NCBI GenBank assembly: GCA_046563655.1
Contig: CM102285.1
Span: forward strand, 372,001-436,000
DNA: 64,000 nt
Source: Yuukianura sp. NJ FZ-2021
Lineage: Eukaryota
Reading direction: 5' to 3'
The notes beneath the pieces were generated by a model. The model saw only the letters and a list, made by a program, of their open reading frames with translations, did no database searches and was not told the origin of the DNA. A program made the translations under genes and the position numbers. This document shows, piece by piece, positions 34,001-64,000 of the stretch. Within the stretch, counting starts at the first letter, position 1. Every line of letters starts with the position of its first letter.

Positions 34001-37000
34001 TTCTTTAAACTTCCGTTTTTCTAAAACTTGTTGTTTTGTAGCAACACAACAAAGTGTACCAGAGTTGTGTCCTACCGCCGATCCTGACTGCCGATAACTC
34101 GCTGCCCTTCTGGTGGAATGTTGCTGTGATGATTGTGTCCATGTACAGTGCCTGCATGGCACCTTACTGTCCACACTTCACGAGTCGCAACGAAGTGGTC
34201 ACTTTCCTCTGTCACATTGACCCCTTCGTCGAAATCGTCTTTTCACTCATCTACTTCATGGACGTCCTCATAGAAATATGCTACTGCTGTCCTGTCTCGG
34301 GTAATAACTTGAGTAATTCAACGAAAAAAATACTCATGATTTTAAAAGTGGAGCTTTATGAGTACAGTAGACCCTCTCAAATTGCAACTCCCTGTGGAGT
34401 AACTTTTTCTGAAAGCGGCCAAACTCGAAAACACGCTATGACACCGATTTTTTTTAAATTTTGTATGTTGATAGGAACGGCCTAGAAAAAATTTTTCGTA
34501 TGGTCAGATCCACCCAAAGGTCACCCCCGGATGGGGGGCAGAGGCTCAAAAGTACCAAAATGAGGTACCGTAGGTATCGCGCCATTCCTACAAATATCAA
34601 CGGATTGACTTGGTTTCTTTTTTAAATGAAAGCTAAAGGATGCCCCCAGAGGTTGTTTTTTTCTCGTCGAGGTGGATGACCCCAGGGCCCCCCTGTGACC
34701 CCTTGAACTTGACCTATTCTGTAATGGGGCATGTAATAGCGCTATCGAAAGCTATTTTCATGCTGATTCAGAATATGTATATATATCCAGACGTATTTTA
34801 AACGGTTTGACCTCTGGAGGTCATAGAATCCCCCTTTCGGCCATATAAGGCCTATAGAAAAACATGTGTTTTTCTTCTTAAAAATTCTACTGCGTGACCT
34901 CCAGAGGTCAAACCGTTCAAAATACGTCTGGATATATATACATATTCTGAATCAGCATGAAAATAGCTTTCGATAGAGCTATTACATGCCCCATTACAGA
35001 ATAGGTCAAGTTCAAGGGGTCACAGGGGGGCCCTGGGGTCATCCACCTCGACGAGAAAAAAACAACCTCTGGGGGCATCCTTTAGCTTTCATTTAAAAAA
35101 GAAACCAAGTCAATCCGTTGATATTTGTAGGAATGGCGCGATACCTACGGTACCTCATTTTGGTACTTTTGAGCCTCTGCCCCCCATCAGGGGGTGACCT
35201 TTGGGTGGATCTGACCATATGAAAAAATTTTTCTAGGCCGTTCCTATCAACATACAAAATTTAAAAAAAAATCAGTGACATGGCGTGCAAATTTTTTTTT
35301 CGATTTTGGCCGCTTTCAGAAATACCTACTCTGTGATTCTTTGATTCGAGTCGCCGCTCACCGTAAAGTTCTTGGTTAAATTCTTGCTGGATATCCACCT
35401 TTTTAGCCTATTTTGTCCAATGGATATCCAGGGAATGATATATGTCATCCGGAAACTTTTTTTACGGTGTTCCGCTAGAAAAAGAAAGTTGTAATTTGAG
35501 GGGATGTACTGTAATCTAAACTTAAGCTAAACGTTTCGTTCCCGTTTTTTTTTTCAGGAATTTACTATAAGTTTAAGGATGGATTGGCGCTGAAAATAAC
35601 TGAGGTTACATTTTGGATTGACGTGTTCTCCTCAATGCCTTTAGGCCTTGTAAACTTCATCCACGGCGACAACCTCGCTGAGAAGGAAGCTGGCTTCACC
35701 GTCAGCACCATTTTCAATGTCATTCTCCAAATTGCAATCATTCTACGCATCCTCAGACTATGGAAGGTCAGTATATACTTGCAAGTAAAAGTTAAAAGTC
35801 ACGACTTTTAACTTTTACTTTTGACTTTTTATACTTCTTGACATCAAATATTTATTCGTTAATGTCATCGACAATTTGTGTTTTTGCGCATGTCTACTGC
35901 ACAGATTGTCCGATTCTTCTCGTACTTGGATAATGCGCGGCCGGAGTCGCTGTTTGTGTATCGTCTGATTCAGTCTATGATCTCCATCATTTACTCTACC
36001 CATGTTGTGGCCTGCTACCTCTACAGTTTTGCATGTTTCACTGTTCCCGGGTAAGTTTATTTAAATAAATTAATTAAAATATATATAAATTCATTCAAAA
36101 AGTTAAGTATACTGTATGAATTGTTGTTTTTTTAGTACAAAGACTGTGATTTGCCACCAACAGTCGTGGTTGCGGTCCTTTACGGAGGGGAAGACTGGAT
36201 TTGCTGCTGAGATTCGGCATGACATGCTGGGGAAAACAGAGGGCTATTGGGTCGCTTACTACTTCGCATGCGCAACAGTCACGAGCAGCGGATTTGGCGA
36301 CTTTAATCCTCAGACTAGGACGGAAATGATTTTTCTAGCTGCTGTTCAACTCATCAGTTTCTGTATCACTGGATACTACACGGCTCTCCTAACATCCGCT
36401 CTCTCCTGTACTGTCAGACCAAAGTAATTAACTTTTTCTAATTAACAGTTAACTAATTCACACAATTACACTTTAAGTTTGAACTTTTTCCATTTTTTGT
36501 GCTTTTTCTAGGTTGACCTTTCAACAAAAGTTGGTCGGAGTTAGGCAGTTTCTGGAACACAAAGGTCAGTTTTCAAAAAACCTTTAAACTTTTCCAAAAA
36601 AAAAAACACAAAAGTTTTCAATTTTTTAATTTTCTTTTAAACTTTGATGGTTTTTTTAAGGTAAACAGTTATGATTTACTTGTGATTTTTAGGATTGGAC
36701 GAGGCCTTACAAAAAAGAATTTTAGAAGTGAGTGACGAAATTGTCAAAATTTTTAATTTTATAAATATCGTACTTCGTGCAGTACTTGTTTAAAATTACA
36801 TGAAGTAGTTTCTTGGAAGTATCCAGTACTTTTTTGAAAGTGGAAGTACTTTTTTGGAAGTACTGCAAGTATTTTGTATTTTGTTTTTGTTGCAGCATTA
36901 CTACTTGCAAGATGTGTTGTGGAAAGGAGTGAGTTTGCCTGAAAATGTTTACCACTACTTGTACGATACTCCGGAGTACATCAATGAGGACGCCATCTAC

Positions 37001-40000
37001 CTCGAAATTGAACTCCACTTTGACGGTGTTCCAATTTTTACGGTATTTTCTTGAAAACTTTTCGAAATTTTAATTTTTTTCACAAAGTTGACCTTGTTCT
37101 TGATTTTACAGAAACTCGACCCGAAGCTGCTCGTGAGCATTGCAAAACTGATTCGACGGTATTTGGTTCCCCCTGGAGTGATTTTCCTCCGTAAAGGAGA
37201 GGTTCGTCGTCAAATGTACATTATTGGACGAGGCAGCGTGGCGGTAACTTTTCAAATTTTGAACTTTTGTTAAAAAAAAGTTTTCTAAAGTTTTTCGAAA
37301 AACTTCTTTTTAAAAAGTTGTTTTCGCATCAGGTATTGTCGGATAAGGACCAAACTGTGCCTTTGAACGTTATTGAGGAAACAGGGCACTTCGGAATCCG
37401 TGACCTCTTGTTCGGAGAACCAGCGCATCACGATATCAAAACTCTGAGTTATTGCATTTTCTTTGAAGTTGAACTGCGAGACTTGTTTGAATCGATGAGA
37501 GGAGATACTGACCTCATGCACTCCGTTGAAGAAGAAAAGGCAGGAAGATTCGAAATTTTAAAAAGTTTAGAAATTTTAATTTTATGATTTTTTTTTTTTG
37601 AAAATTTATGAAATAGGAAAAGCTGCAACCAGGAATCGACGCTATGCTGAAACTGTTTTCGTACAGAAATCGTACGACACAAAACGACTCCCTTCACTCC
37701 ATTCCATCTTTTATCGATTTTCCAAGAAACAAAGACGATAATAAACCGTACTGCAGCTACGAAGAGTACGAAGAAGTCTTCAACGGATTGAAACGACCGC
37801 GATTTTGGAGGTTTTTTAAAAAAAGAAGAAGTTTTTTTTCGACAAATTTTCAAAATTTTGGTTTTTAGGTTCATTCTGATGAGGCGAACAATTCATCCTG
37901 TTGGAATGTTTGCCAAAATCTGGGTATGCTTCATGAGTCTCGTGGCTGCTCTGAATATTGCAATGATGGTGGCCGAAGTTTTTGGTGGGCGGAGGAATTC
38001 CAACCACTTGTATATCATGTGGGATTTCATTGGAGCCATTGACATGTGAGTCACACATGCTTGAGACTCAGAAAAAAAATAAACCTAGTGGGACTCGAAC
38101 CCACATCGCTTTAATCTAGGGGGAGCTCTAACCATTGAGCTATGAGGTTCCTATTTGATAGAATTGGAAGGCTGCCTAACACACCAGGCATTCATGGAGG
38201 TGTGTGGAAGGACAGTGCCTGTTATGGTAGCCTTCCGATTTTACCCTGCTACTGTTTCGGAACCTGATAGCTCAAAGGTTAGAGCTCTTCCTGGAGTGAA
38301 GGTGATGTAGGTTCGAGTCCGACTCGGTTCTTTATTTTTTTTCTGCACTGTCATTCTTTATCTACAAAGCATGTGAACTGCGAACCTGAGCTAACTTTTT
38401 TTCAGATACTTCAAGTTGCATTGGGCTTACTACAAAGAGAGCAACATGCTCATCAGTCATCCACTCAAAACAGCAACTCGCTACATTTTCAAAAGAGAAT
38501 TTGTGTTTGACTTGTTCGTGACGGCGCCTTTTGAACTCATCGTTCCGGTTTTGACTGGCACGCATTGGCTTGGTTACTCAAAAACTGCTGGATGGCACAG
38601 CAAACTCCGCTGGACACGATTTGGCCAAGTGATGCGCATCCCCGCAATTGTCGTCATTTTTCATAACATTTTCAAAATGAGGAAATTCCTTTTGTGAGTT
38701 TTTCAAAATTTCGAAAAATTGATTTCAATTTCATCAATTTTTCAATTTTTGGTTTTGTGATTTAGGTTGGTGTCGTACATTGCAATTACGCTGTTCATTT
38801 GTACAATTCTGGCAAGTTTTGCTGAGACGAATGCTTGTCCTGTTGGTGAAACGATTTTCAAAGAAGGAGATCAAAATCGGCTTCCATTTTGCAAACAAGG
38901 GACTTACATGCGGGTCAAAGGTTACATTTTAAAATTCAAAAATTATGTTTCAAATTTGAACACTATAAAAATTTTTTTGAAAAGTTGGAAATTTCTGAAT
39001 TTTAGAAAGTTTTGGTATAAATACACCAACAAGTCGGTGGATCGTTGGAATTTACTATGTCAGTCAAGGGATGTTCAGCGTTGGGTTTGGAGACAGTACG
39101 AACTTTCACTTAAAATTTTAAAAAATTTTGATTTTTGAATCTGATATTTTAGTTTTTCAAAATTTTGATTTGTTCTGAAATGCAGTTACGACTCTGAGCG
39201 TTGGGGAAATGAAGCTACTAATTTTTGTTTGCTTTTTTGGTAAGTGTTTAGTACAAACTTGTTACTAAACTAAAAATTTTGATGTTTTTTTGAAATTGTG
39301 TCACTTGGTTTAGGATTTGCAATCCTGCGATGTATTCTGTCTGATATCACTGCTGCTGAAGTGGACATTGATGAAGTTCGACACAACTACTTAGAGCAAA
39401 TCCTTTGTCTCAAACTCATCATGCTCAGAGAAAAAGTTCCAAAGAAAATTCGAAGGTATTTTTTTCGAAAACGACATTTTTCAGACAAAAAGTAAAAATT
39501 TTTTAACACTGTTTTGACACTTTGCTTTTGGAATTTTTAGAAGCGTCCTGTCATACATGTATCACACTTGGGACTTGTCAAAGGTCAGCTTTTTATTTTT
39601 ATTTTTTTGAAAATGCTGGTTTTGAAAATCAAAATGTGAAATTTCTTTTTCAGGGTTTACAACCACGTCAACTTTTTAGTGATTTGCATCGTAAGGGAGG
39701 AAATTAAAATTTGGAAACTCTTTCTTGATTTTAATTTTGACAATTTTTTTTTTTTTTTTGGAAATTTTTAGCTGCTCTGGAAGCTGATTTGTTCAGAGTG
39801 GTTGCGGGAGACAGTCTTACAAAGGTAAAGTGTAGAATCAGAACAATTCTTAAAAAGTTGGAATTTTGAAAAGTCAAAATTTCTTGAACAACTGAATTCA
39901 AAATTTTGGATTTTGAACTTTTAGATTCCAATTTTTCACGGATTGAGAGAAAATGTGCTGCGGACAATTTGCCAGTACATGAACACACTATTTTTTCGAA

Positions 40001-43000
40001 AAGGCGAGCGAATCACTCGATTTGGAAATATGGAACTAGAAATGTAAGATTTCAGAAAAAACAGACACCTTTTTGAACATTTTTTTTTAATTTCAACATT
40101 CAAGCGAATTTTCAAAAAAAAAATTGATGTAGAATTTGGTTCTCTTTGAAAAATTTAGGTACATCATTGTCAAAGGCCAAGTTTGGATTGCTGATCGGTT
40201 TCTGGTTTGGACTCAAACTTTGGAAGCTGGACAGTAAATTACAAATTAAAAAAAAATCAATTTTCGAAATTTTGAATTTTGAAATTGGTTCCGTTTTTAG
40301 GTCGTTTGGAGAGTCGTCTATTGTTTACTTCACAAGACGGAACTACAATGCCATTGCGGCTTGTGACGTTGAAGTTTTTGTTTTGGGTGCTTCTGACTTT
40401 GAAGTTGTTATTCAACGGTAAAATTCAAATTTTGATAACTTAAAAAAATTATTTTTGAAAAACCAGGGTTCGAAGGCTGTAACTTACGTCCTGTAACTTA
40501 CGTAACTTACGTACGTAAGTTACGTAATTTTCAGAGGGGTTGTAATTTTTGAAATTTTCATTCTTTTGAATTTTACGCGGGAGGGAGACAGCGTAGGAGT
40601 CATGGGAGCGGGAGCAGTCCAAAATAACAAAAGAGCAGTGATTTAGATGATTATTTTTTCGGTTTTTTCTCGAGCAGACTGCTCGAAGAATACCAGGATA
40701 TTCTTCGAGCAGTCTGCTCGAGAAATACTAGGATATTCTTCGAGCAGTCTGCTCGAAAAATACCAGGATATTCTTCGAGCAGTCTGCTCGAGAAATACCA
40801 GGATATTCTTCGAGCAGTCTGCTCGAGAAATACCAGGATATTCTTCGAGCAGTCTGCTCGAGAAATACCAAGATATTCTTCGAGCAGTCTGCTCGAGAAA
40901 TACCAGGATAGTTCTCGAGCAGTCTGCTCGAGAAATACCTGGATATTCTTCGAGCAGTCTGCTCGAGAAATACCTGGATATTCTTCGAGCAGTCTGCTCG
41001 AGAAATACCTGGATATTCTTCGAGCAGTCTGCTCGAGAAATACCAGGATATTCTTCGAGCAGTCTGCTCGAGAAATACCAGGATAATTCTCGAGCAGTCT
41101 GCTCGAGAAATACCAGGATATTTTTCGAGCAGTGTGCTCGAAAAATACCAGGATATTCTTCGTAGCTTTTCTTTCTGTTGTTTTAACTGGCTGTTATTGA
41201 AATGCCACGAGTCAGAGATCCGATTTGGAACGATTTTGACCTTGAACCAAACCCGGGCAGTAAGATCCCCTGGGCAAATTGTAAGTTGTGTGATTGGAGA
41301 CATGCAGGAATCCCGGACAGGATGAAATCACACTTACAGAAACATCAAAACGTTGGCAAAGACTCCGAATCAATTGGGCCAAGTACGTCATGTTCACTTT
41401 AACATTTTCAGAGTCTAATTGTTGAGAGCGAGCAGCGAGCCTGAGGAAGAGTTAGATGTGATGGCAGTGGAATAATTAGTGTTATGTTTCTCGAACTATT
41501 TGTGTTAATTGCGTTAAGTGTGTTAGTTTAGTCTTAAAAATAAAATAGTAGTAAATATTGTCTACCGCAGTATATTTCTATCAGGCCTTGGTTTGATTTT
41601 TAACGCAATTAGATAGTAGATATTAATAGTTTTTGGTTTGGGGATGGGAGTGGGGTGCAGGCGGCTTGTTTTGAAAATTACAATCTTACGTAGATTACGT
41701 AAGTTACGATAATTACGTAAGTTACGTAGTTTTCGGCAAAAATACCGTAATTTTCGAACCCTGTGAAAAACTAAAGTTTTTTTTTGTTTGCAGTTATCCT
41801 ACGCTACTGTCTGAAATCCAAGGCAAATTGCTGCTTCCTGACAGCGATATTTTCCAAACCGGTCACATCAAGGACCAGACAGCGGAAAATGTGAAACAAA
41901 TTTCGAGTCACATCAAAACTCTGCTGGAGAGAAACTCTGAACCTGATCCAGACGAAGAAGAAATTTATCAACATGTGAGAGAAGGCTGGTTCAGAAGTAT
42001 CCTCACAATGTTATGGGCTACGGGAGAAGAAAATGAAAATCTATCTTTTTTCTACTTCACCAAAAGGTAAAAAGTGTTGTAGCTGACACTCTGACTCAAA
42101 AAATTTGAAATTTCTGATATACAGTAGAACCTCTCATTGTGCAGCATTTAGCTCCGCCCCTCCTAACTGTTAGATACCGTAAAACTTAAATTTTTGAAGT
42201 GAAACCAACTAATTAAAACAAACAATCCAAATACGTTTACAGTAAAACCTTTCATTGTGCAACATTTAGCTCCACCCATCTTTTAGCTCCGCCTTTCCTA
42301 ACAGTGGGATTCCGGAAAAACTTAAATTTTTGGCGGGATTTTACTTTGTAAACAAAAAATAAACTAAATGGGCCTCAAACGTGTTAGAATTAAAAAGTTA
42401 GGAAACGTAAAAAACTAAACTAACCAATGAGAACGTGTTGCCAAATGAGAAGTTTTACTGTAATTCATAAATTTTTATTTTGTTTTTCAGCACAAGTGCT
42501 TCCGTGCCGTTTCTGCTTCACCCGAAATGTGGATTTCTGAATTGGTTTGATTCTTTAGTGATTGGAATTTCGTATGTGAGTCCAGCACTGGCAGCATACA
42601 ACATGGTTTTCAAAGAGGAAGTTCCATCAGAAGTTGGAGAGTGGATTCGAACACTGACTTTTGCCATGGAAGTGCCCATGTACCTCCACATTGTGCTCCA
42701 GTTCTTCATTCCATTCACTCTAGTCAATGGGAAGTACTGCAAAAACTTGCTCAAAATAGCTTTCAAGTGAGTCACTTTTCAAAAAAGTTTCAACATTTGT
42801 TGAAATCGGTGTTAAAATTGTGTTTTAACATTTCAGCTACATCGTACCGCCTGGAGCGTTTTTGGTTGATGTTATCGCAAGTGCACCTATTCGAAGCAAC
42901 ATTGGAGTTGGAGACCCAGCCAGGTCAGTTCCAATTTGTTTCGACAAGAATGCTACGCTGGCGTGCTGGGGCTTCGCCCTTTTTTAGCAAGAGACCAAGA

Positions 43001-45521
43001 CTTATTTCCAAAATAATACGCTAGAAATTTAGAATGTGTGATGGTGTGTTCAAAAAACACTATTTTGGAATTTATTTTTCAAAATCACCCCTATTTTTCA
43101 AAATTTTTTTAACTCATGACTTTTTTTTAAATCGGCCACATTTTTCAAAATTTTTCTAACTCATGGCTGAGGACGTTACAATTTAAAATCTACCGTATGG
43201 TAGTCCAAAACCGTTACTAGATAGAGCTAAAACTTTTGAGAGTATAAACATGAGTAGTAACTTTTACCCTGCAACTTCTCATTAGTATATAATTGATTAA
43301 ATTGTTGTATATAAATTATATTTAGTTGATTAAATTTTAAGTAGTAGTACTAATTTTAATTTTAAGTACTATATTTTAATAAATATAATTTATAATAATA
43401 TTTTTTTTTGAAACTCCCAGGTTCCTTGGACTTCTTCGTTTCTTACGACTGGTGAGTTAAAATAACAAATTCTCTTAGGATTCAATGCAATTATCAATTT
43501 AAAAATTTAAAAATTTAAAAATTTGTGTTTTTCAGTTTTACTTTTATCGGACGCAACTTGCCAAATCAAGTGACCTGCGCACAAGCGTCTTCAAGCACAA
43601 AGTGTCCCTGTCAATGTCAACTTTTATGTTGGTCATCAACGGAATTGCTTGCTACTTCTACTCACTTGCAATCTGTACTTGCACCAATTCTGAAAAGAAA
43701 ATTAACTGCGGAGATGACGACATTTACGAAATGTGTAGAGCTGGAACCTGGACATACGAGTGTAAGAGGAATCCATGACCTTTGACCTTTGACCTTTGCA
43801 CAGTTTGTTTTTGTTTTTTAGTTGTTTTCACTCATGAACTGCAAACTCTACGACGACTCCAACCGTGGCGGTGGTACGTGCGCAGTCTCTACTGGGTAAT
43901 TACGACTGTGTCAACAACTGGATTCGGCGATATCACGCCGATCAATGCCGAAGAAGCCCGACTCGCCATTTTCACAATTTTTTGTGGCGCTTTCATCATT
44001 TCTGTCATTCTGAGTAGTTTTGCCTCCGGAATTTCTTCGTTGAACAAAACCTACAGAGAGTATTTGTACAAAGTCAATCTCCTCTTGGTAAGCATTACAA
44101 ATTTTCAAAAAAAAATTGAATTTTTTTAAAAAAATAAGTTTTTTGAAACTTTTTTTTTGTAGAAACACATGGGAAACATTGGAATGAGTAATGAGCGGAG
44201 ACATCAAGTCATTTCGTACTTTGTGATGCGGTGGGAACGGTGCCGCGGTGTGAAGTACAGTGACTGTACGAGCGCCTTGCCGACAACCATGGGAACCTCG
44301 GTTTGCTACTTTCTCTACTTTCCTGTTGCATCCAAAGTAAGTTTTTGAAATATTTTTGAAAAATGAAATTTTTTGGAAAAAATCGATTTTGAAACACTCT
44401 CCTTCGGTTTTTATGAAATTTTGATTGTTTGCAGTGCAAGTTGTTTACAAATGGACTGGACTCGATGTTCATGCGAGAGCTGTGTGCAATGTTTACTCAT
44501 GAAATGTTCATTCCGGGCATTACGATTGTCAATGAAGGATATTTGGAGACGATAGAAACAAATGACGGTGCGGATTCGATCGCCACTGGACGGATGTTCC
44601 TGGTCTACCGAGGACGAGTGTCGTCTTACACCAAGGACAAGGAAGGGCGGGAGTTTTTGGTCGAAACTTATGGAGACGGAGAAGTGTTTGCCAAGGGATC
44701 CGTTCTCTTCTATGACTTGGCCTACACTAAGGTAACAACGTAGCATAATGTGAGGTTCAGGCATCACATGGCTTGAGAGACAAAAAAAAATACAAAACCG
44801 AGTGTCACTCGAACCCACATCGCTTCACTTCGGGAAGAGCTCTGACCATTGAGCTATCAGGTTCCATTCGGACAGGATGGAATCGGAAGGTCTTGTGGCG
44901 TTTGGAAGAGAAGAGCTGGGATAGCCGGTCTTCCAATTGCTCCATGTTGAGATACTGGAGGAAGGAGCCGATAGCTCAAAGGTTAGAGCACTTCCCGGAT
45001 AGAAGAGTGTTGGGTTCGAATCCCGCTCGGCGTCTAATATTTTTTCACACTATTTTTCACTCAGTCCTCAACCTGTGAGCCCCAGTGTCACAGCTACTGG
45101 CTAGCTAAATCTGAAATGTTGAAATTTGACCTTTGACCTTTGACTTTTGCAGTCGTACCGAGCGGAGACATACACAGAAGTGCTTGGACTGTCGCAGAGT
45201 GATGTTTTGCATTTGGTAGACAGCTACGATGGATTTGCCAACAACATGCTCACTCTGATGATGGACGAGTATCCAAGGATCAAGAATGTGTCTATCTTTG
45301 AGAATCGGGAAAAGTCCAAGAAGAAGGGCGACAGAGAGTCGCATTCGAGCACTAACATATCCGGAGCAGCGTCTGCGACGAGTTTTGGAAGTGGTGGGAC
45401 AACCCGGACGGGAGAAGATGCCCCGAGGGGAGTGTCACCTTGGACACTCGCATTCGCCCTCGCCAAGCAGAAGAAGGCACAGGCAGAGTCATTTCAAAAG
45501 TTGGCGGGAGAAGCCATGTAA
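31003..45521 (+). CDS. CNGK: Four-repeat K+-selective cyclic nucleotide-gated channel (CNGK / tetraKCNG-like)
   Basis: Many short exons encoding four TM-pore-C-linker-CNBD modules. Pore motifs TTGYGD (split by intron 32201-32280), SSGFGD (36284-36301), SVGFGD (39077-39094), TTGFGD (43914-43931). No internal start/stop structure suggesting separate genes was seen, but not every junction was verified. Confidence 0.85.
32955..33292. mobile_element. TA-flanked MITE with repeated CCGTATTTCC ends in a CNGK intron
   Basis: TACCGTATTTCC repeated several times, with inverted end CGAGGAAATACGGTA. Confidence 0.55.
34365..35511. mobile_element. Tc1/pogo-type MITE interrupted by a foldback element
   Basis: TA-CAGTAGACCCTCTCAAATTGCAACT ... 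AGTTGTAATTTGAGGGGATGTACTG-TA. Confidence 0.7.
34397..35331. mobile_element. Long-TIR foldback non-autonomous transposon, Sola2-like
   Basis: Near-perfect inverted arms 34397-34823 and 34895-35331 around a 71-bp spacer. GAG...CTC termini and 4-bp TSD TGTG (34393-34396, 35332-35335). The superfamily is inferred from the termini only. Confidence 0.85.
38054..38375. mobile_element. Foldback element with two outward-facing tRNA-like units (copy 1)
   Basis: Minus-strand unit 38083-38151 and plus-strand unit 38259-38330, each with A box TAGCTCAAWGG, B box GGTTCGAGTCC and a downstream T run. Outer inverted repeat CACATGCTT/AAGCATGTG. Confidence 0.8.
40464..41763 (+). mobile_element. Non-autonomous hAT transposon with BED zinc-finger remnant and internal satellite
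   Basis: TIR CAGGGTTCGAA/TTCGAACCCTG, 8-bp TSD TGAAAAAC (40456-40463, 41764-41771), TTACGTAA subterminal repeats. ORF 41202-41402 DPIWNDF...CKLC...MKSHLQKH resembles a BED finger. Confidence 0.92.
40666..41161. repeat. 35-bp palindromic tandem repeat, about 14 copies
   Basis: Unit TTCTTCGAGCAGTCTGCTCGAGAAATACCAGGATA, containing the palindrome TCGAGCAG-T-CTGCTCGA. Confidence 0.95.
42120..42462. mobile_element. TA-flanked pogo/Tigger-like MITE
   Basis: TA-CAGTAGAACCTCTCATT ... AATGAGAAGTTTTACTG-TA, with a second left end at about 42238. Confidence 0.6.
44764..45078. mobile_element. Foldback element with two outward-facing tRNA-like units (copy 2)
   Basis: Minus-strand unit 44797-44865 and plus-strand unit 44964-45034, with A/B boxes and T runs. 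Outer loose inverted repeat TCACATGGCTTGAG / CTCAACCTGTGA. Confidence 0.8.
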
Positions 45522-55754: not shown

Positions 55755-57509
55755 TTACTTATTCCTCTTCCGTTTTTGTTGATTTTTTGCACCGTCCAGA
55801 ATTTGCGGTTCGTAGTCAAGTTCGGTTGCTTTAGCAAACAATTCAGCATACATCTCCAGTCGCTGGGTCATCTAAAAGTCAAAGGTCAAAGGTCATGTTA
55901 GTAAAGGTCAAAGGTCAAATTTTATGTCAATGAACTTTACACTCACCCGAAATCCCCACATGTCTTTGACCTGCTGACAGAGATTCAGATCTATTTCTAC
56001 AACAAGGAGTCCATCACGAACACGGGAAAGTTCCTGGACAATTAAAAAGTTGTTGAATTTAAAAATCTTGAAAATTACAATTTCGAAAATTAATTTTTTG
56101 ATGAAATTTACAGGAGTTCTGGCGCCATCAGGAGCAGTAACGTACGACGATCCATAAAAATGTGCAAAAGTGTCGTTCGTCCATTTTTCATCTCCGGATG
56201 TAAATACTTCCGTTCCAACACGGTTGATGGCACAAGTGAAGTAACTGTTGGCAATGGCCGCATTCCGAGCCTAAGTTCAAAATTTCACAATTTTAGAAAA
56301 TATAAATTTAAAAACGTGTTTAGGATTTCATTTTAAGAATCGCTTACTTCAATTCCCCAAGTCGGTTCAGTTAGATCACCGACAGTTGCTGAAGGATTGA
56401 ACACAATTTCTGCGTTGTTGAGTCCATACATTGTCCAGTTGAGCGGATGATGTCTTCCAAAACCAATGTCAACAGCGATTTTGCCAAACGGAGTCTGAAA
56501 TACAGGTCACGAGTAAAGGTCAAAGGTCAAGGTGAAGGTCAAAGTGCAAAGGTCATTGACCTACCTGGAATACTGGATGACCCAGGGTTGACTCCACGTA
56601 GTACGTGGATTCGATGAAGCCACCCACTCTCGGAATGTGGTTTTGCCTACTTTTGCCCAAATATTTTCCGTTGTTGCCAATAACAACAGCCGTGTTCCAG
56701 AAAACACCGCCGTCGTCACGCTCCAGGATCGGCGAAACTATGACCATGTTGTATGTTTTGGCCAATTTCTGCACAAGAAAAAAAATTGTCATTAGGTTAG
56801 TCAGATTTTAGGCTAACAAGGTTAATCGATTAGGTTAACTAATTAGGTTAACTGGGTTGTTAGGCTAACTTTCAAAAAGTGAGTCGTGGGTCCTTCTTCA
56901 GCATGTTCGTAGTACTCCGTCCAGGGAAGTCTCTCGCGCGAACAAAAAGCAACCGGCGTGGCTGTAAAACGTAGGAAAAATTGAGAAAAAGACGCAAACT
57001 TTAGCGATTCGCGTTTTTACGCACCTAAGGCGCGTAAGCTACCTTACTCCATGTTTCCTGGAAGCAGAAGATGTTGACTTTCATGGCCGCTGCAGCTTTG
57101 ATGGCATTCGCTGCCAAACTGTACAGCGCTGATCGCTGCTCCTTGATCGGTGAATCAGTGGGAAGCGGCAACTTGTTTTGAAAAAGTGCCACGCGCGTGA
57201 GGCGCGGAGGACGCAACTGTTCTGGTTGTGCAGTGAACTGTGCCGTTTGAATGCCAAAATCAGCTGATGGCGTCACAGCGATTCGCCAAGCTTCAACTGG
57301 AATCTCCAAACTTCTAAATTTAAAAAAAAACACAGTTTTTCAAAAAACCATTTAAAAAATGTGCGTTTTAATTTTCTAGTCCAAGTTTTGTACAAATTGT
57401 GAACTTACTGCGGAGGATATGCAGTACCATAGAGCACTTTCCAAACTTTCTTCAACTCTGCCTCTGGCAAATACTTGACCAAAATGGATTTTACACTTTC
57501 CATTTCCAT
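55755..57509 (-). CDS. Beta-ureidopropionase paralog with substituted catalytic residues (probable pseudoenzyme)
   Basis: Eight in-frame exons colinear with the neighbouring copy. FQETW retained, but KSRQNHIP and [11 protein letters not shown] replace the catalytic Lys and Cys motifs. Confidence 0.9.
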
Positions 57510-58113
57510 TTTCAAAATTGAAATTGGAGGTTTCGAAATTTCAGAATTTGGAAAAAATGAAATAAAGAATTGGACAACTGTAAGTTAAGAATATATGCTT
57601 CCAATCGGCTTCTTCTCCTTCGCAACACTGACACTGTAAACTTCTCAGAAGCTTGAGTCTAAAGGAATTATGATTTCTTAAATGTATGAATTTGATTTCT
57701 CAGGTTAATTGAATTGAAAAAAAAAGTAAAAAGTTAAATGAATTGAATAGTAGACTGGCTTATAGAGTTGTTTTGGGTTGAGTTTCGAAGATATTTTTTT
57801 CCAAACACACACAAAGTAAATGTAAGTCGTTGATAAATGTAAGTTTAACTGTGAATAACTTTTTGTAAAAAAAAAAACTCATGAAATTACTTTTACATCG
57901 TCAATTTTTAGCTAAAAACTAAAACTAGAAATGCAAAATTGAATACGCTGCCATTTCCAGTAACAATAAAAACTATTTTTTTACATTCCTGCAACAAATT
58001 TAACATTTTATTGAATTTAATTATAATAATTTGACCTCAGTCCATAGAATCGCTGCGAGTTCTGAAAATCTGAAATTTCTTCAACGATTTCTTAAAAATT
58101 GGCCATTTTTTTT

Positions 58114-59861
58114 TTACTCTTCTTCTTTTTTTGCTGAATTTTTTGAACCGTGAAGAATTTGGGGTTTGTAGTCCGGTTTGCTTGCTTTAGCAAACAGTTC
58201 AGCATACATCCCCAGTCGCTGGGTCATCTAAAGAAGGTCAAAGGTCAAATGTTAAGTTAGTGTAGACCAAAGGTCAATGACCTCGGTACCTTCTTTTAAA
58301 AACTTACACGAAATCCCCACTTGTCCTTGACCTGACGACAGAGATTAAGATCCATTTCTACGACCAAGAGCCCATTGCGAGTACGAGACAAACCCTGCAA
58401 TGTTCCAAAGGTTTTTGAAATTCAAAATTTCGAAAATTTAATTTTGAAAAGTACATTTTTTAAAAAAAGTTTACAGCAGTTCTGGCGCCATCAGGAGCAG
58501 TGACGTATGACGATCCATAAAAGTGTCCGAAATCGTTGTGCGCCGGTTTTCCATCTCCGGATGTAAATTCATTCGGAAATACTTCCGTCCCAACACGGTT
58601 GATGGCACAAGTGAAGTAATGGTTTGCAATTGCTGCATTACGCGCCTGAATTAAAAATTTCAAAAAACAAAAATTCAATATTTTGCTTATAATTTGAATC
58701 AAAATTTTGAAAAATCGCCTACTTCAATTCCCCAAAGTGGTTCACTTAGATCACCGACAGTTGCTGACGGATTGAACACAATTTCGGCGTTGTTGAGTCC
58801 ATACATCGTCCAGTTGAGCGGATGGTGTCTTCCAAAACAAATGTTGATAGCAATTTTACCAAATGGAGTCTGAAATGACAAACGTCAAAGGTCAAATGTG
58901 AAAGGTCAAAGGTCATTGACCTACCTGGAATACAGGATGACCCAGCGTTGACTCCATGTAGTAAGTAGATTCATTGAAATCCCCCACTCTAGGAATGTGA
59001 TTTTTCCTACTTTTGCCCAAATATTCTCCGTTGTTGCCAATAACAACGGCTGTGTTCCAGAAAACATCGGCGTCGTCCCGCTCCAGGATCGGCGAAATTA
59101 TGACCATGTTGAATCGTTTGGCCAATTCCTGTACAAGAAAAAGTGATATTAGGTTAGTCAGATTAGGCTAACTAGGTTAACTAATTAGGTTAACTGGATT
59201 ATGTTAGGCTAACTTTTAAGAATTGAGTCGTGGGCCCTTCTTCAGCATGTTCGCCGTACTCCGTCCAGGGAAGTCTCTCGCGCGTACAAAAAGCAAACGG
59301 CATGGCTGTAAAACAGAGGAAAAATTGAGGAAAAAGAGGTGAATATTGGCGATTCGCGTTTTTTACGCTCCTAAGGCGCGCAAGCTTGCTTACTCCATGT
59401 TTCCTGGAAACAGAAGATGTTGGCTTTCAGCGCCGATGCAGCTTCGATCGCTTTTGATGCCAAGCTGTAGAGTGCTGATCGCTGCTCGTTGACCGGTGAA
59501 TCAGTGGGAAGTGGCAACTTGTTTTGAAAAAGTGCTACGCGCGTGAGGCGCGGAGGACGCAACTGTTCTGATGCAGCAGTGAACTTTTCCGTTTGAATGT
59601 CAAAATCAGCTGATGGCAACGCAGCGATTTCCCTCGCTTCAGCTGGAATTTCCAGCGTTCTAAATTTTAAAAAAAAAGACACTTAAAAGAAGAAACAAAC
59701 AATTTTTAAAAAATGCGTTTTCATTTTTTAATCCAAGTTTTCTAAAAATTGTAAACTTACTGCGGAGGATATGAAGTACCATAGAGCACTTTCCAAACTT
59801 TCTTCAACTCTGCCTCCGGTAAATGCTTGGTCAAGATGGATTCCATACTTTCTATTTCCAT
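58114..59861 (-). CDS. pyd3: Beta-ureidopropionase (beta-alanine synthase, nitrilase superfamily)
   Basis: Eight exons. Intact triad motifs [25 protein letters not shown] and [12 protein letters not shown], plus EARNAAIAN and [11 protein letters not shown]. Confidence 0.95.
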
Positions 59862-61484
59862 TTTCAAAATTGAGAGGTTTCAAAATTTCAAAAAACCTGA
59901 AAATGAAATCAGAAATTGGAAAATTGTTCACACTGCTCCCAAACAGCTGTTTGTCCTATCTCACACTGACACTGGAAGCTTGAATAGCAAAAGCTGCGTA
60001 TTCCTTATAGCCTTTTTAGATCCAAGTGACCTTGTGCAGATTGACCTTCCAGAAGGTCACACATAATCTCCAACTTCATGCATCTTCACACTCTTATGTG
60101 TTAATGCCATATTTCACATTTCTTTTGAAACTTGTAGAAAAGTAGATAAGAATTACACGCATAAAGTTAAGAAAAGTTAAGAATTTAAAATCGCCAATTT
60201 CAATTTACAGTTTCATGCGATTAGCTAAACAGGAATTAGCTAAACATGCAATATAGTTGAACACTTTTTAAAGTCAGCAGCGGTAAAGAATTTCTGTTCG
60301 ATTGAGTCATGTTCGGTGCTTTTCAAAAGCCAATTTCGCAAAAAGTTTTTTCTTTATTACAACAAAATTCTTTTTAGAACAAAATTGGTTTTACGACAAA
60401 GCTTTTTTTTTTGGTAAAGTTTACTTTCTCTAAGAATTTTTTCCCTCTACACACCTTTTTTCTACTGAACATGAGTCTTGATTCCTTATAAAGTGGAAGT
60501 GAAGTATTAATAAATTAAATAAGTTATTGATTTGTTTGTTGTTCCTGGAATCTGTCCAAAACAGAACCTTATGAGAATGTGTTTTTGTGGATTCTGGAAG
60601 TTACAACTTACAAACACAGCAATCAATCCTCGTAACTCCCGAAGCCTCATAATGTTCCTTGTCTACAGAAATAAAACCATTACGCCCTATGGGGCTTTTC
60701 TTTTTTAGTGCAATTTATTGCCGGGATTTGTTAAAAAACGAAAAAAAGAGAGAGAAAGCGAAGAGAAAGCGAAAAAAAGGAGGGAAAGAGGAAAAACGGA
60801 AAAGATTTGGGAGGAACTCCGTCGATTCAGTCTAAAAACTCATTTTTTTAGAAGCTGAGAATTTTTGAATTTTTGTGAGCAAAATAAAAGGAAAAAAAAT
60901 GGGGAAGAAACTTTTTTGAAGAAAGTTCTTTTAGAATATACTTTTAAAATTTTTCTAACGAAGTAAATAATGTTGTTGTTGTTTTCAAAAATACTTGTGC
61001 TTTGATACGTTTTCAAAAGCTGGACAAAGTTTATGGACGGCTGAGTAGCAGTTTGTGTCATGTTTTTAGAAAAGATTCTAAAATCCTAAAAATAGGAACA
61101 ACTTTTCAAAAAAAAACAGTTCAGAAAAAACTGGTTGCTGAACGACACTGAACTCTTCGCCAAGATCCAATCTACTCAAATGCATTGCAAATATGATACT
61201 TCGATTCGAAAAACAGTTCGGAGCCAAGTGGATCCTACTCGCAAATAGTTTTTGCAAAAAAAAGTTTGCAAAAAGTTGTGCAAAAATAAGGAGCCAAAAT
61301 GTGAATGGAGCTCAAAACTTAGAAGTCACTTTTGTTTTTAAAAATAGTTTAGAAAACAGTCAGAATACGCGGTGAAGGATCTTTTCAATTTCTAAAATTT
61401 TAAGAATTAAAAAAAAAAGTGTCAAAATCAAAAACTAAACGTCTGAAAATCAAAATCAAGTCTTTATGAAGTGTGTTGAAAAAG

Positions 61485-62290
61485 ATGGATTTGGATCCTA
61501 TGAAAAGAAAGATTGTGACCAGATGCATCGGAATATTCGACATGGTGAGTTCATTTTACAAGAAAATTTTTCCAAAAAAGTTTTTTGGTTTTAAATTTTC
61601 AAAATTTTGACTTTTTAGGTTTTGGGCTTGTGTGCATTGGTGTTTAACTTACACACAATGTGGGACTACTACTTGTACGACGTTAGGAAAATACCGCAAA
61701 CTATGACGTACGACGGAATCGAGTACAATTTTACCGAAGGCGCAGAGGACGACGTCGACGCAGTGTCGGAGCAACTACGACATATGAGTAAGTTTCAAAA
61801 TTTTGAAATCCAAAATTTTGAGATCCAAAATTATGAAATCTAAATTTCGAAATTCTTGTTCCGCAGAACTTCCATTTTACTCTTTCGTGATGATTTGCGT
61901 GGTCGTCTTTACACTGAATTTGTTTCAAATTTTTATGGGATTTTCTCTCCAAGTGGCAACATTTGGACGGGTAAAATATTTTTTTTATGTTTTTGAAAAT
62001 TCCCGGGTTTCAAAATTTTGAAATTTTGATAGAATCAAGCAGCGTCAATCAACATAGCAATTTGTTGGCTCCGGAGTTCCTTGACCCTGCTGTTCCTCGT
62101 GTCACTCAAAACGATTGTTCTAGCAATTGCATTCCTCTGTGAGGAAATGGAAGCTGATTGGGTCACTTTCGGAATCGGAGTGACCGAAATCCTTTTTCGG
62201 ACGTTCGGTTCTTACTGGGTGCCAAAATTCATTAATTTTCTCAAATGTCAGTATCAGTTTGACTCAAGATGTCACGTAATGAGAATTTAA
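61485..62290 (+). CDS. Small four-transmembrane protein of unknown function
   Basis: Four in-frame exons (61485-61544, 61619-61787, 61867-61970, 62033-62290) with four hydrophobic segments. Confidence 0.75.
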
Positions 62291-62455
62291 GTTTAGCTAA
62301 ATCTAATAAGCTTAATCTATTTAGATTGATTAATCTAACTTTAATAATTAACAAAGACTGGTATACTTTTTTACGTCAGGAAAACTAAAAACACGAAAAA
62401 TTGAGTTAAAAATGTTTCAAAACATATTTTTTAAGTAAAATCTCGCAAAAACGTT

Positions 62456-62530
62456 GCTGTGGAAACCAGCGACTTGGTTAGCATCCGCTATTCAAAACAG
62501 GGTCAGGCCAGTTCGAAACCTGGTTGGAGC
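62456..62530 (+). repeat. Degenerate tRNA-derived/SINE-like fragment (second copy at about 63812-63882)
   Basis: TGGTTAGC D-loop-like motif, B box AGTTCGAAACC and a downstream T run. No convincing cloverleaf. Confidence 0.4.
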
Positions 62531-62633
62531 AAAATACTTTTTTGAAGAAAAAGTTAAATTTTAGGTTTTTAAAAAAAAGTTAAATAAGTTTTAATCGGTT
62601 TTAGTCAATGTTAGGACGCTGAATTTCTAAAAA

Positions 62634-62921
62634 ATGCCGCTCAACAGACGCAGGTCGAGCTCCGTGATGCTGGAAAGTCAAATCCTGGAGAGAATTGGTG
62701 AATGTGAGCACTGTTTCCCTCTGTACTCCTACTATGCTGACAGCATAAGTGACACTGGACGGAGTACTACGACTGACGACCAAGTGGATCACGTCGCTCG
62801 CATGTTTGGGTTGCCATCGCTACCGACACGAAAACAGCTTATAGCCAAAAGGAAAGCAGAAGCACAGTGGGGCAGAATCAAAAATAACAGGCCACGGTTG
62901 TTAGGGGAAACGTTGAGTTAA
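62634..62921 (+). CDS. Hypothetical 95-aa basic protein (a second copy starts at 63990)
   Basis: AAAATG start, coding-like composition, and the same start TTTYWAAAAAATGCCGCTCAA repeated at the window end. Confidence 0.45.
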   Translation: MPLNRRRSSSVMLESQILERIGECEHCFPLYSYYADSISDTGRSTTTDDQVDHVARMFGLPSLPTRKQLIAKRKAEAQWGRIKNNRPRLLGETLS

Positions 62922-63083
62922 TTTTTGTAATTACATTAAAAGTGAATGTCAAAATCAGGATTTACGCGGATCGAAATCCCGAAAAATCCCGGTAACCCAC
63001 TGCTAATCTAAAAGTTGGAATAAAAACTAGACACCGTCATGTACCAAGTCCGACTGCCACTTCGTGCCACTTTGGCACTTGTC

Positions 63084-63650
63084 GTACAATGTCACCGAAG
63101 ACGCAGAGGAAGACGTTGACGCAGTGTCGGAGCAACTACGACATATGAGTAAAAGTTTCAAAACTTTGGAATCCAGAATTTTGAAATCCAAAATATGAAA
63201 TCTAAATTTCGAAATTCTTGTTCCACAGAACTTCCATTTTACTCTTTCGTGATGATTTGCGTGGTCGTCTTTACGCTGAATCTGTTCCAAATTTTTATGG
63301 GATTTTCTCTCCAAGTCGCCACATTTGGGCGGGTAATTTTTTGTTTTTCGCTTTTCAAAATTTCCGGGTTCAAAATTTTGAAATTTTGATAGAATCAAGC
63401 AGCGTCAATCAACATAGCAATTTGTTGGCTCCGGAGTTCCTTGACCTTGCTATTTCTCGTGTCACTCAAAACAATTGTTTTAGCAATTGCATTCCTCTGT
63501 GAGGAAATGGAACCTGATTGGATCACGTTCGGAATCGGAGTAACCGAAATCCTTTTTCGGACGTTCGGTTCTTACTGGGTGCCAAAATTCATTAATTTTC
63601 TCAAATGTCAGTATCAGTTTGACTCAAGATGTCACGTGATGAGAATTTAA
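63084..63650 (+). pseudogene. 5'-truncated duplicate of the 4-TM gene (or an alternative 3' cassette)
   Basis: Near-identical to 61724-62290 including introns, but lacks exon 1 and the start of exon 2. Confidence 0.6.
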
Positions 63651-64000
63651 GTTTAGTTAAAGCTAAATCTAATTAGATTAATTAATCTAACTTGAATAAT
63701 TAACAAAGACTGTTATAATTTTTTACGTCAAGAAAACTAAAAACACGAAAAATTGAATTAAAAACGTTAAAAATTTTTTTTTTGAAGTAAAATCTAGTAA
63801 AAACGTTGATTTGGAAACCAACGACATGGTTAGCCTCCGCACTTCTAAACAGGGTGAGGCCAGTTCGAAACCTAGTTGGAGCAAAATACTTTTTTTTTGA
63901 AGAAAAAGATAAATTTTATAGCTTGTTAAGTGTTCTGACCAGCTTTACTCAGTGCAAGCGATGCTGAGCTAGACGCTGATTTTCAAAAAATGCCGCTCAA

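Follow-up and report, generated by a model that had tools for sequence, protein, structure and literature searches.

We describe two palindromic elements of about 320 bp each, found at 38054–38375 and 44764–45078 of a 64,000-nucleotide stretch of Yuukianura sp. NJ FZ-2021 (GenBank assembly GCA_046563655.1, contig CM102285.1, positions 372,001 to 436,000 of the forward strand; hereafter the window, whose own positions are used throughout). Each is made up almost entirely of two tRNA-like units with RNA polymerase III (Pol III)-type signals, joined head to head, and each lies in an intron of a predicted cyclic nucleotide-gated (CNG)-type K+ channel gene. We propose, with a probability of roughly 0.55, that both are copies of an old, non-autonomous, non-coding element of the miniature inverted-repeat transposable element (MITE) or foldback kind, with tRNA-derived arms, that has been moved or copied as DNA. 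Such a build is unusual for a small mobile element. The proposal draws on the shared geometry of the two copies, on their membership in a dispersed repeat family, and on conserved sequence that extends beyond any expected Pol III transcript.

Build of the two elements

An alignment of the four arms gives one order of parts for all of them, namely a leader with the motif CTTCCRATT, a tRNA-like part of 70 nt (GATAGCTCAAWGGTYAGAGC ... GGTTCGA), a T-run, and a tail that ends in ..CATGTGA. The units face outward in both copies, so that the leaders meet at the centre and the elements begin with TCACA... and end with ...TGTGA. Leader and tail are similar across all four arms of the alignment, and a run of at least six T lies no more than 15 nt 3' of every tRNA-like part in both copies. 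The arms of copy 1 pair as inverted repeats over 43 nt (84% complementary), 41 nt (80%), 15 nt (100%) and 18 nt (83%), and those of copy 2 over 76 nt (74%). Taken alone, the tail motif is not distinctive in the window: at up to three mismatches it has 3 matches, against 1.7 expected, and 1 of the 3 lies inside an element. The parts are as follows.

38054..38375, no strand: copy 1, palindromic element of 322 bp, making up 89% of the intron 38046–38405
38080..38149, minus strand: copy 1 left arm, tRNA-like part with exact B box; Rfam tRNA score 36.6 bits
38261..38331, plus strand: copy 1 right arm, tRNA-like part with exact B box; Rfam score 32.6 bits, ARAGORN pseudo-Ser(GGA) tRNA
38152..38258, no strand: copy 1 centre, the leaders ATTGGAAGG and CCTTCCGATT with a short spacer, from the inverted pair and the leader alignment
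38069..38083, minus strand: T-run of the copy 1 left unit (an A-run on the plus strand), in the 15-nt pair of 100% complementarity; the tail, 38054–38068, lies outside it
38331..38345, plus strand: T-run of the copy 1 right unit, in the same 15-nt, 100% pair, with the tail next, which ends in ..GCATGTGA at 38375
44764..45078, no strand: copy 2, palindromic element of 315 bp, making up 75% of the intron 44732–45152
44794..44863, minus strand: copy 2 left arm, tRNA-like part with decayed B box GGTTCGAGTGA; Rfam score 28.6 bits, gathering score 29
44965..45034, plus strand: copy 2 right arm, tRNA-like part, the most diverged arm, sharing 49–52 of 71 core positions with the other arms; Rfam score 33.0 bits

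A first-pass annotation of the window had proposed two elements of about 320 bp at these coordinates, each built of outward, head-to-head units with a leader, A and B boxes, an oligo-T run and a TGTGA tail. The sequence and its inverted-repeat arms bear out the first part of that description, and the alignment and motif scans the second.

tRNA likeness and hairpin fold

The arms are tRNA-derived and carry Pol III-type A and B boxes and T-runs, as had been proposed. The Rfam tRNA model matches all four, three of them above its gathering score of 29 (36.6, 33.0 and 32.6 bits) and the fourth, 44794–44863 on the minus strand, just below it at 28.6 bits. Exact matches to the B box GGTTCGARTCC number three in the window, where 0.03 would be expected, and every match lies within an arm, one in each of three arms; three of the four arms have intact A and B boxes and T-runs. 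In the four-arm alignment, standard pairs fill 83.8% of the cells of the cloverleaf, compared with 13.8–50.6% when the pairing partners are slid. None of the 20 cloverleaf pairs has undergone two-sided (compensatory) change, and 11 depart by unpaired cells only. Pairs that erode without compensation argue that the cloverleaf was inherited from a tRNA and is not maintained. A pair of genuine tRNA genes is ruled out by the low Rfam scores (28.6–36.6 bits), mismatches in the acceptor stems, anticodon loops that differ among the arms, and the ARAGORN result, in which a tRNA, Ser(GGA)-like, was called in only one of the four arms. We regard two further sub-threshold Rfam matches, to mir-872 (21.8 bits against a threshold of 75) and Plastid-ycf2 (19.5 against 65.7), as chance.

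The idea that each whole element can fold into one long hairpin also stood up. The minimum free energy of copy 1 is -169.9 kcal/mol, where shuffles average -88.5 (z -15.3), and that of copy 2 is -140.7 kcal/mol, where they average -93.0 (z -9.9); in neither case did any of 100 shuffles match the native value.

The inverted dimer as the unit

In both copies the two inverted arms act together as a single dimeric unit. Between the 5' ends of the two tRNA-like parts lie 107 nt in copy 1 and 99 nt in copy 2, and the leaders abut in both. Pairs of independent monomer insertions would not give the same geometry twice; for these two copies at least, the dimer was therefore passed on as a whole. A chance inverted pair formed by short interspersed nuclear elements (SINEs), comparable to inverted Alu repeats, is ruled out by this geometry together with the lack of any solitary arm in the window: a profile built from the four arms recovered those four arms and nothing else in the 64 kb (E values of 2e-34 to 2e-42), the next three matches having E values of at least 1.2.

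The relative orientation of the two copies is ambiguous. The first-pass annotation had taken the left arm of copy 2 to match the right arm of copy 1 best, but the 61 of 71 core positions that these two share are not meaningfully more than the 59 of 71 found in each of the other two comparisons. It had also read the copies as oppositely oriented, which is not borne out: aligned over their whole length they score about alike whether direct (260/347, score 196) or flipped (257/326, score 172). The centres give a weak alignment in both directions (z 2.1 and 2.4, with 30 and 13 of 1000 shuffles scoring as high), and diagnostic columns conflict, column 20 joining both right arms and column 40 joining the right arm of copy 1 with the left arm of copy 2. 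We likewise rejected a same-orientation reading based on an extra GGAAG motif shared by the two centres, given these ambiguous alignments and columns. Of the suggestion that an asymmetric dimer is the mobile unit, the dimer thus holds on its 107- and 99-nt geometry, whereas the asymmetry does not, in view of the alignment scores and the conflicting columns.

A dispersed repeat family

Five public sequencing runs contain the stretch; they come from two organisms and two studies, and all are listed as DNA, the exact kind being a guess. Logan contigs of four of these runs (X1–X4) were placed on 37600–38800 at a likeness of at least 80%, which gave 307, 258, 179 and 77 placed contigs for X1, X2, X3 and X4, respectively. 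These contigs are mostly 100–400 nt long and the reference locus is itself in pieces. Contig depths do not equal copy numbers and are used here only as a sign of many-fold repetition; in X2 they rise from about 41 in the flanks to 11532 and 7997 over the two tRNA-like cores, with 6900 in the right leader bin, 2080 in the left leader bin, 1330 at the centre and 1012 over the right tail. The profiles of X1, X3 and X4 have the same shape, and in all four runs the cores lie tens to hundreds of times above the depth of the flanks. This pile-up in four runs from two organisms identifies the element as a copy of a dispersed, many-copy repeat family, repeated in both organisms, and not as a local oddity; the description of it as a repeated element is thereby confirmed.

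Loose contig ends show that what other copies have in common with the element goes beyond the tRNA-like part. Before 38072 their consensus is ..GCTTAGAG followed by an A-run, like the tails of the copies in the window, and a group of X2 contigs with loose ends before 38260 reads ..GATTCCATCCTGT.., resembling the left leader of copy 2. One contig holds two arms with a different middle (joint from 38138 to 38260). The family is not uniform. Contig joints that link opposite strands were rejected as evidence for dimers or monomers, since they reflect no more than a better fit of the leader or half-tRNA of a given copy to the other arm.

The insertion of copy 1 is shared by the second organism (organism B), where X4 records 25, 26 and 32 cover it with 5, 6 and 0 other letters; over 188 and 214 letters at this locus, the differences between the two organisms number 5 and 6. 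A second form of the copy 1 locus, about 5% diverged, is present in X3 (record 19: 656 nt, holding the element in full, with 36 differing letters and 18 gap positions). This second form spans 37846–38493 of the window and X1 has matching minor variants; it is either a haplotype or a paralogue in the sample.

Outside these runs, scans of prokaryote genomes and of viral contigs with the core pattern gave no match in either set. The single metagenome locus (L001) that matched the pattern of leader and D arm is a true tRNA of bacterial type (72.3 bits), rich in GC and lacking the element, and we consider the match to be chance.

Mode of spread

Genes of the tRNA type (type 2) are transcribed by Pol III from near the first base of the tRNA and terminate at an oligo-T run. 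With a T-run directly 3' of the tRNA-like part, a Pol III transcript of one arm would be tRNA-sized and would lack both the conserved leader and the conserved tail. No Pol III RNA would thus contain the whole of the unit that is copied, a point that speaks for copying at the level of DNA and against SINE-type retroposition. The identity of a SINE is further excluded by the lack of a body and of any A-rich, simple-repeat or long interspersed nuclear element (LINE)-like tail, by the position of the T-run terminator ahead of the conserved tail, and by a leader that lies upstream. The elements are instead short (322 and 315 bp), non-coding, bounded by terminal inverted repeats and present in many copies, as MITE or foldback elements are. 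An earlier suggestion of a hybrid between SINE and MITE holds in so far as a SINE-like head is combined with MITE-like symmetry; its SINE side fails with the T-run ahead of the tail.

Considering these features, we propose the following scenario, in which (i) an arm would have arisen from a decayed copy of a tRNA gene together with a fixed leader of about 40 nt and a fixed T-run and tail of about 30 nt, two such arms becoming joined head to head; (ii) the resulting palindrome would have moved as DNA through an enzyme, provided in trans, with specificity for the TCACA.../...TGTGA ends; (iii) copies would have inserted into two short, AT-rich introns of the putative CNG-type K+ channel gene and drifted neutrally thereafter; and (iv) in the pre-mRNA each copy would fold as a long, imperfect hairpin that draws the ends of the intron together, which may be why the element is tolerated there.

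Several observations weigh against this proposal. Only two full copies are seen as sequence. No target-site duplication is visible by eye in either of these two old copies, whether the ends are set at CACA.. or at TCACA..; weak target duplications could be lost in copies of such age. The flanks outside ..TGTGA are unlike in all six pairwise comparisons (p 0.10–1.0), and neither a superfamily nor a partner transposase can be assigned. In addition, 16, 11, 13 and 4 contigs of X1 to X4, respectively, cease to resemble the element where the tRNA-like part has its 5' end, behind 38143, and continue in an A/T-rich consensus with an agreement of 0.47–0.62; they may be monomers or another subfamily. 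One X3 contig carries a direct tandem of two units (joint from 38340 to 38259, a step back of 82). We also considered that the element might extend through small terminal hairpins (ATGTGA..TCACAT) to the splice donor, and rejected this extension: the outward flanks align no better than shuffles in any of the six pairs.

The contigs that depart from the element upstream of the tRNA-like part, and the direct tandem, would also fit a different history, in which monomeric tRNA-like units spread singly and were doubled locally by palindrome-making processes of the host, such as fold-back repair or inverted duplication; on this view, what moves would not be the dimer. That such processes may act here is suggested by a second palindrome in the same gene, unrelated to the elements and 99% complementary over arms of 376 nt (34448–34823 and 34895–35270). 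Independent local events would, however, not be expected to yield the same geometry twice (107 and 99 nt, with abutting leaders), no single arms remain in the 64 kb, and both leader and tail are conserved even though they lie outside the Pol III transcript. We consider local doubling unlikely.

A dimer made through RNA appears more doubtful still. A read-through transcript running from leader to tail could have been reverse-transcribed and its cDNA could have snapped back at the 5' end of the RNA. The orientation, with the 5' leaders central and the 3' tails outside, is what such a process would leave, as is the lack of a fixed-length target duplication. Yet the arms end in a fixed ..CATGTGA and not in poly(A) or a simple repeat, Pol III would stop at the T-run ahead of the tail, and a target duplication of variable length is likewise not seen.

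Host gene and introns

The elements lie in a many-exon gene on the plus strand that, by its Pfam domains (an ion-channel pore and a cyclic-nucleotide-binding domain), is assigned to the CNG-type K+ channels. Its closest fetched relative is a 1783-residue protein of the springtail Orchesella cincta annotated as 'cyclic nucleotide-gated olfactory channel', to which one exon is 54% identical (E 1.4e-31). The order of this protein is followed along 34045–45284 by 19 of 20 tblastn blocks, which are colinear, the remaining block being an internal-repeat match. When 38046–38405 and 44732–45152 are removed, the spliced peptides align to the Orchesella cincta homologue without gaps over both junctions, which verifies the two introns.

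38046..38405, plus strand: host intron of copy 1, GTGAGT...TTTCAG; 322 of 360 nt (89%) are element, 8 + 30 nt are not
44732..45152, plus strand: host intron of copy 2, GTAACA...TTGCAG; 315 of 421 nt (75%) are element, 32 + 74 nt are not

The statement that the elements occupy most of two introns of a CNG-type channel gene was thus correct. Their GC contents of 45% and 48%, compared with 22–28% in three neighbouring introns, make the elements look foreign to these short, AT-rich introns. The two introns fall at non-equivalent places of the protein, one early in a transmembrane repeat and the other inside a nucleotide-binding domain, which indicates separate insertions and not a copied intron. 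Without copy 1, the intron 38046–38405 would measure 38 nt, below the 52–136 nt of seven simple gaps between homology blocks; this small remainder could reflect a deletion after insertion, wrongly placed element ends, or intron gain.

The last of these possibilities corresponds to an introner-like origin, in which the elements would have created the introns by inserting into exons and supplying or recruiting the splice signals. The large share of each intron taken up by the element (89% and 75%), the 8 + 30 = 38 nt left in the intron of copy 1 against 52–136 nt in the seven simple gaps, and the start of copy 1 only 8 nt past the splice donor would all agree with it. Donor and acceptor nevertheless lie outside the palindrome (GT 8–32 nt and AG 30–74 nt away), the flanks between element and splice sites are unlike between the copies, copy 2 leaves 106 nt, an ordinary intron length for this gene, and the exon junction at copy 1 (..CAT|ATA..) is not a proto-splice site. 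We therefore regard intron creation by these elements as improbable.

Age, decay and possible function

The insertions are old and are decaying neutrally. The two arms of copy 1 agree in 59 of 71 core positions and are thus no closer to each other than arms of different copies (59 and 61 of 71), and the changes are non-compensatory: in the second form of the locus, the variants at 38058, 38061 and 38366 in the terminal stem, checked on the fold of copy 1, are not compensated. Both observations fit old, neutral decay. The left arm of copy 1 also differs from the contig majority at 8 listed places within 38081–38122. We conclude that the copies are real but probably inert, a decaying repeat without sign of a function for the host.

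Two consequences for RNA had been suggested earlier. The first, that the outward units would produce sense and antisense small RNAs, does not follow from the arrangement: outward units on inverted arms yield the same RNA and not complementary ones. The second, an intronic double-stranded RNA, holds for the host pre-mRNA, which alone contains both arms and could form the hairpin, and fails for complementary transcripts of the Pol III units.

Selection for working Pol III genes or TFIIIC boundary sites, or for the intronic hairpin as a source of small RNA, is highly improbable: three of the four arms retain their A and B boxes and T-runs and the locus is kept in two organisms, but the Rfam scores reach only 28.6–36.6 bits, the acceptor stems contain mismatches, none of the 20 cloverleaf pairs has changed in a compensatory manner, one arm has lost its B box, the terminal-stem changes of the second form (38058, 38061 and 38366) are uncompensated, and the two organisms, with 5 and 6 differing letters in 188 and 214, are too close to reveal constraint.

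Comparison with known elements

In their size, lack of coding capacity, multiple copies, composition of nearly nothing but inverted arms, single long hairpin, intronic location and fixed terminal motifs (TCACA.../...TGTGA), the elements resemble MITEs and foldback-type non-autonomous DNA transposons. Drosophila FB and Galileo are elements of the foldback type. In contrast to MITEs and foldback elements, the arms described here consist of entire tRNA-like genes that carry Pol III A and B boxes as well as T-runs, and no target-site duplication was seen; they also lack the subrepeats found in the arms of FB. With tRNA-derived SINEs, of which Twin of Culex is a dimeric example, they share a tRNA-related head with A and B boxes, many dispersed copies, and low-scoring matches of the kind that tRNA pseudogenes give. 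They differ from these in having neither a body nor an A-rich or LINE-like tail, in the T-run directly behind the tRNA-like part, in a leader that lies upstream of the transcript start, and in units that stand head to head and not in direct order. Introner elements are introns derived from DNA transposons. Both they and the elements of the window are small inverted-repeat elements that nearly fill a short intron; here, however, the element does not include the splice sites, and what is left of the flanking intron differs between the copies.

Inverted pairs of Alu or other SINEs in transcripts, in the part of PMC5080714 available to us, are likewise repeats of the tRNA or 7SL type that lie in opposite directions in an intron and form a stem in the pre-mRNA, but those are separate insertions at arbitrary spacing, whereas the pair described here has a fixed geometry and recurs as a unit. 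The V domain in MER6, as presented in the accessible text of PMC6887750, offers a parallel in that a SINE-type sequence spreads within a DNA transposon; there, the SINE domain is a central passenger, while in the window the tRNA-like heads themselves form the inverted arms. A full-text search of the literature, which did not cover Repbase, Dfam and SINEBase, returned no described element with tRNA-like inverted arms. Neither a report of introners in springtails nor a MITE with tRNA arms was found in the literature, including the available portions of PMC3845634 and PMC2817418.

A palindrome of many copies with tRNA-like arms blurs a common sorting rule, by which a tRNA head marks a SINE and inverted ends mark a DNA transposon, and automatic pipelines would misfile such an element under SINEs or tRNA pseudogenes. 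Springtail repeats are mostly unclassified, and in three assemblies of Folsomia candida 'unclassified transposons' make up 4.8–14.3% and SINEs 0.01–0.02%, according to the part of PMC10087712 that we could consult. If the ends are recognised by a transposase, the family would clearly exemplify the spread of Pol III gene units by an element at the DNA level, and it would seed TFIIIC and Pol III sites, together with long intronic hairpins, across genes.

A bolder version of our proposal, which we put forward tentatively and judge to be rather unlikely, is a family of DNA transposons, 'tRNA-armed MITEs', whose terminal inverted repeats are complete Pol III genes of the tRNA type, including promoter, terminator and fixed flanks, and which may use the Pol III machinery, for instance open chromatin bound by TFIIIC, for mobilisation or targeting. 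In that case each jump would plant two outward-facing Pol III/TFIIIC sites, a class II element would have been assembled from class I (SINE-type) parts, and in genomes with short introns such elements could form near-whole introns.

Other repeats in the window

The channel gene holds further repeats that are separate from the two elements. The palindrome mentioned above, in an upstream intron, has arms at 34448–34823 and 34895–35270 (376 nt, 99% complementary) and a spacer of 71 nt, and, as judged by eye, inverted likeness of lower identity continues beyond the arms as far as about 34409 and 35321. This suggests a young foldback inside an older one, or homogenisation of the arms. Another intron of the gene carries, at 40562–41261, a tandem array of about 20 units of 35 bp, which are partly palindromic, so that the array scores as many inverted repeats. 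Elsewhere in the window, 1713–2295 is a tandem repeat of five copies of units of about 93 bp that are 71–97% alike, and 61828–63904 and 55773–59873 hold two sets of direct duplications with spacings of about 1.36 kb and 2.35 kb, respectively, and 75–93% likeness.

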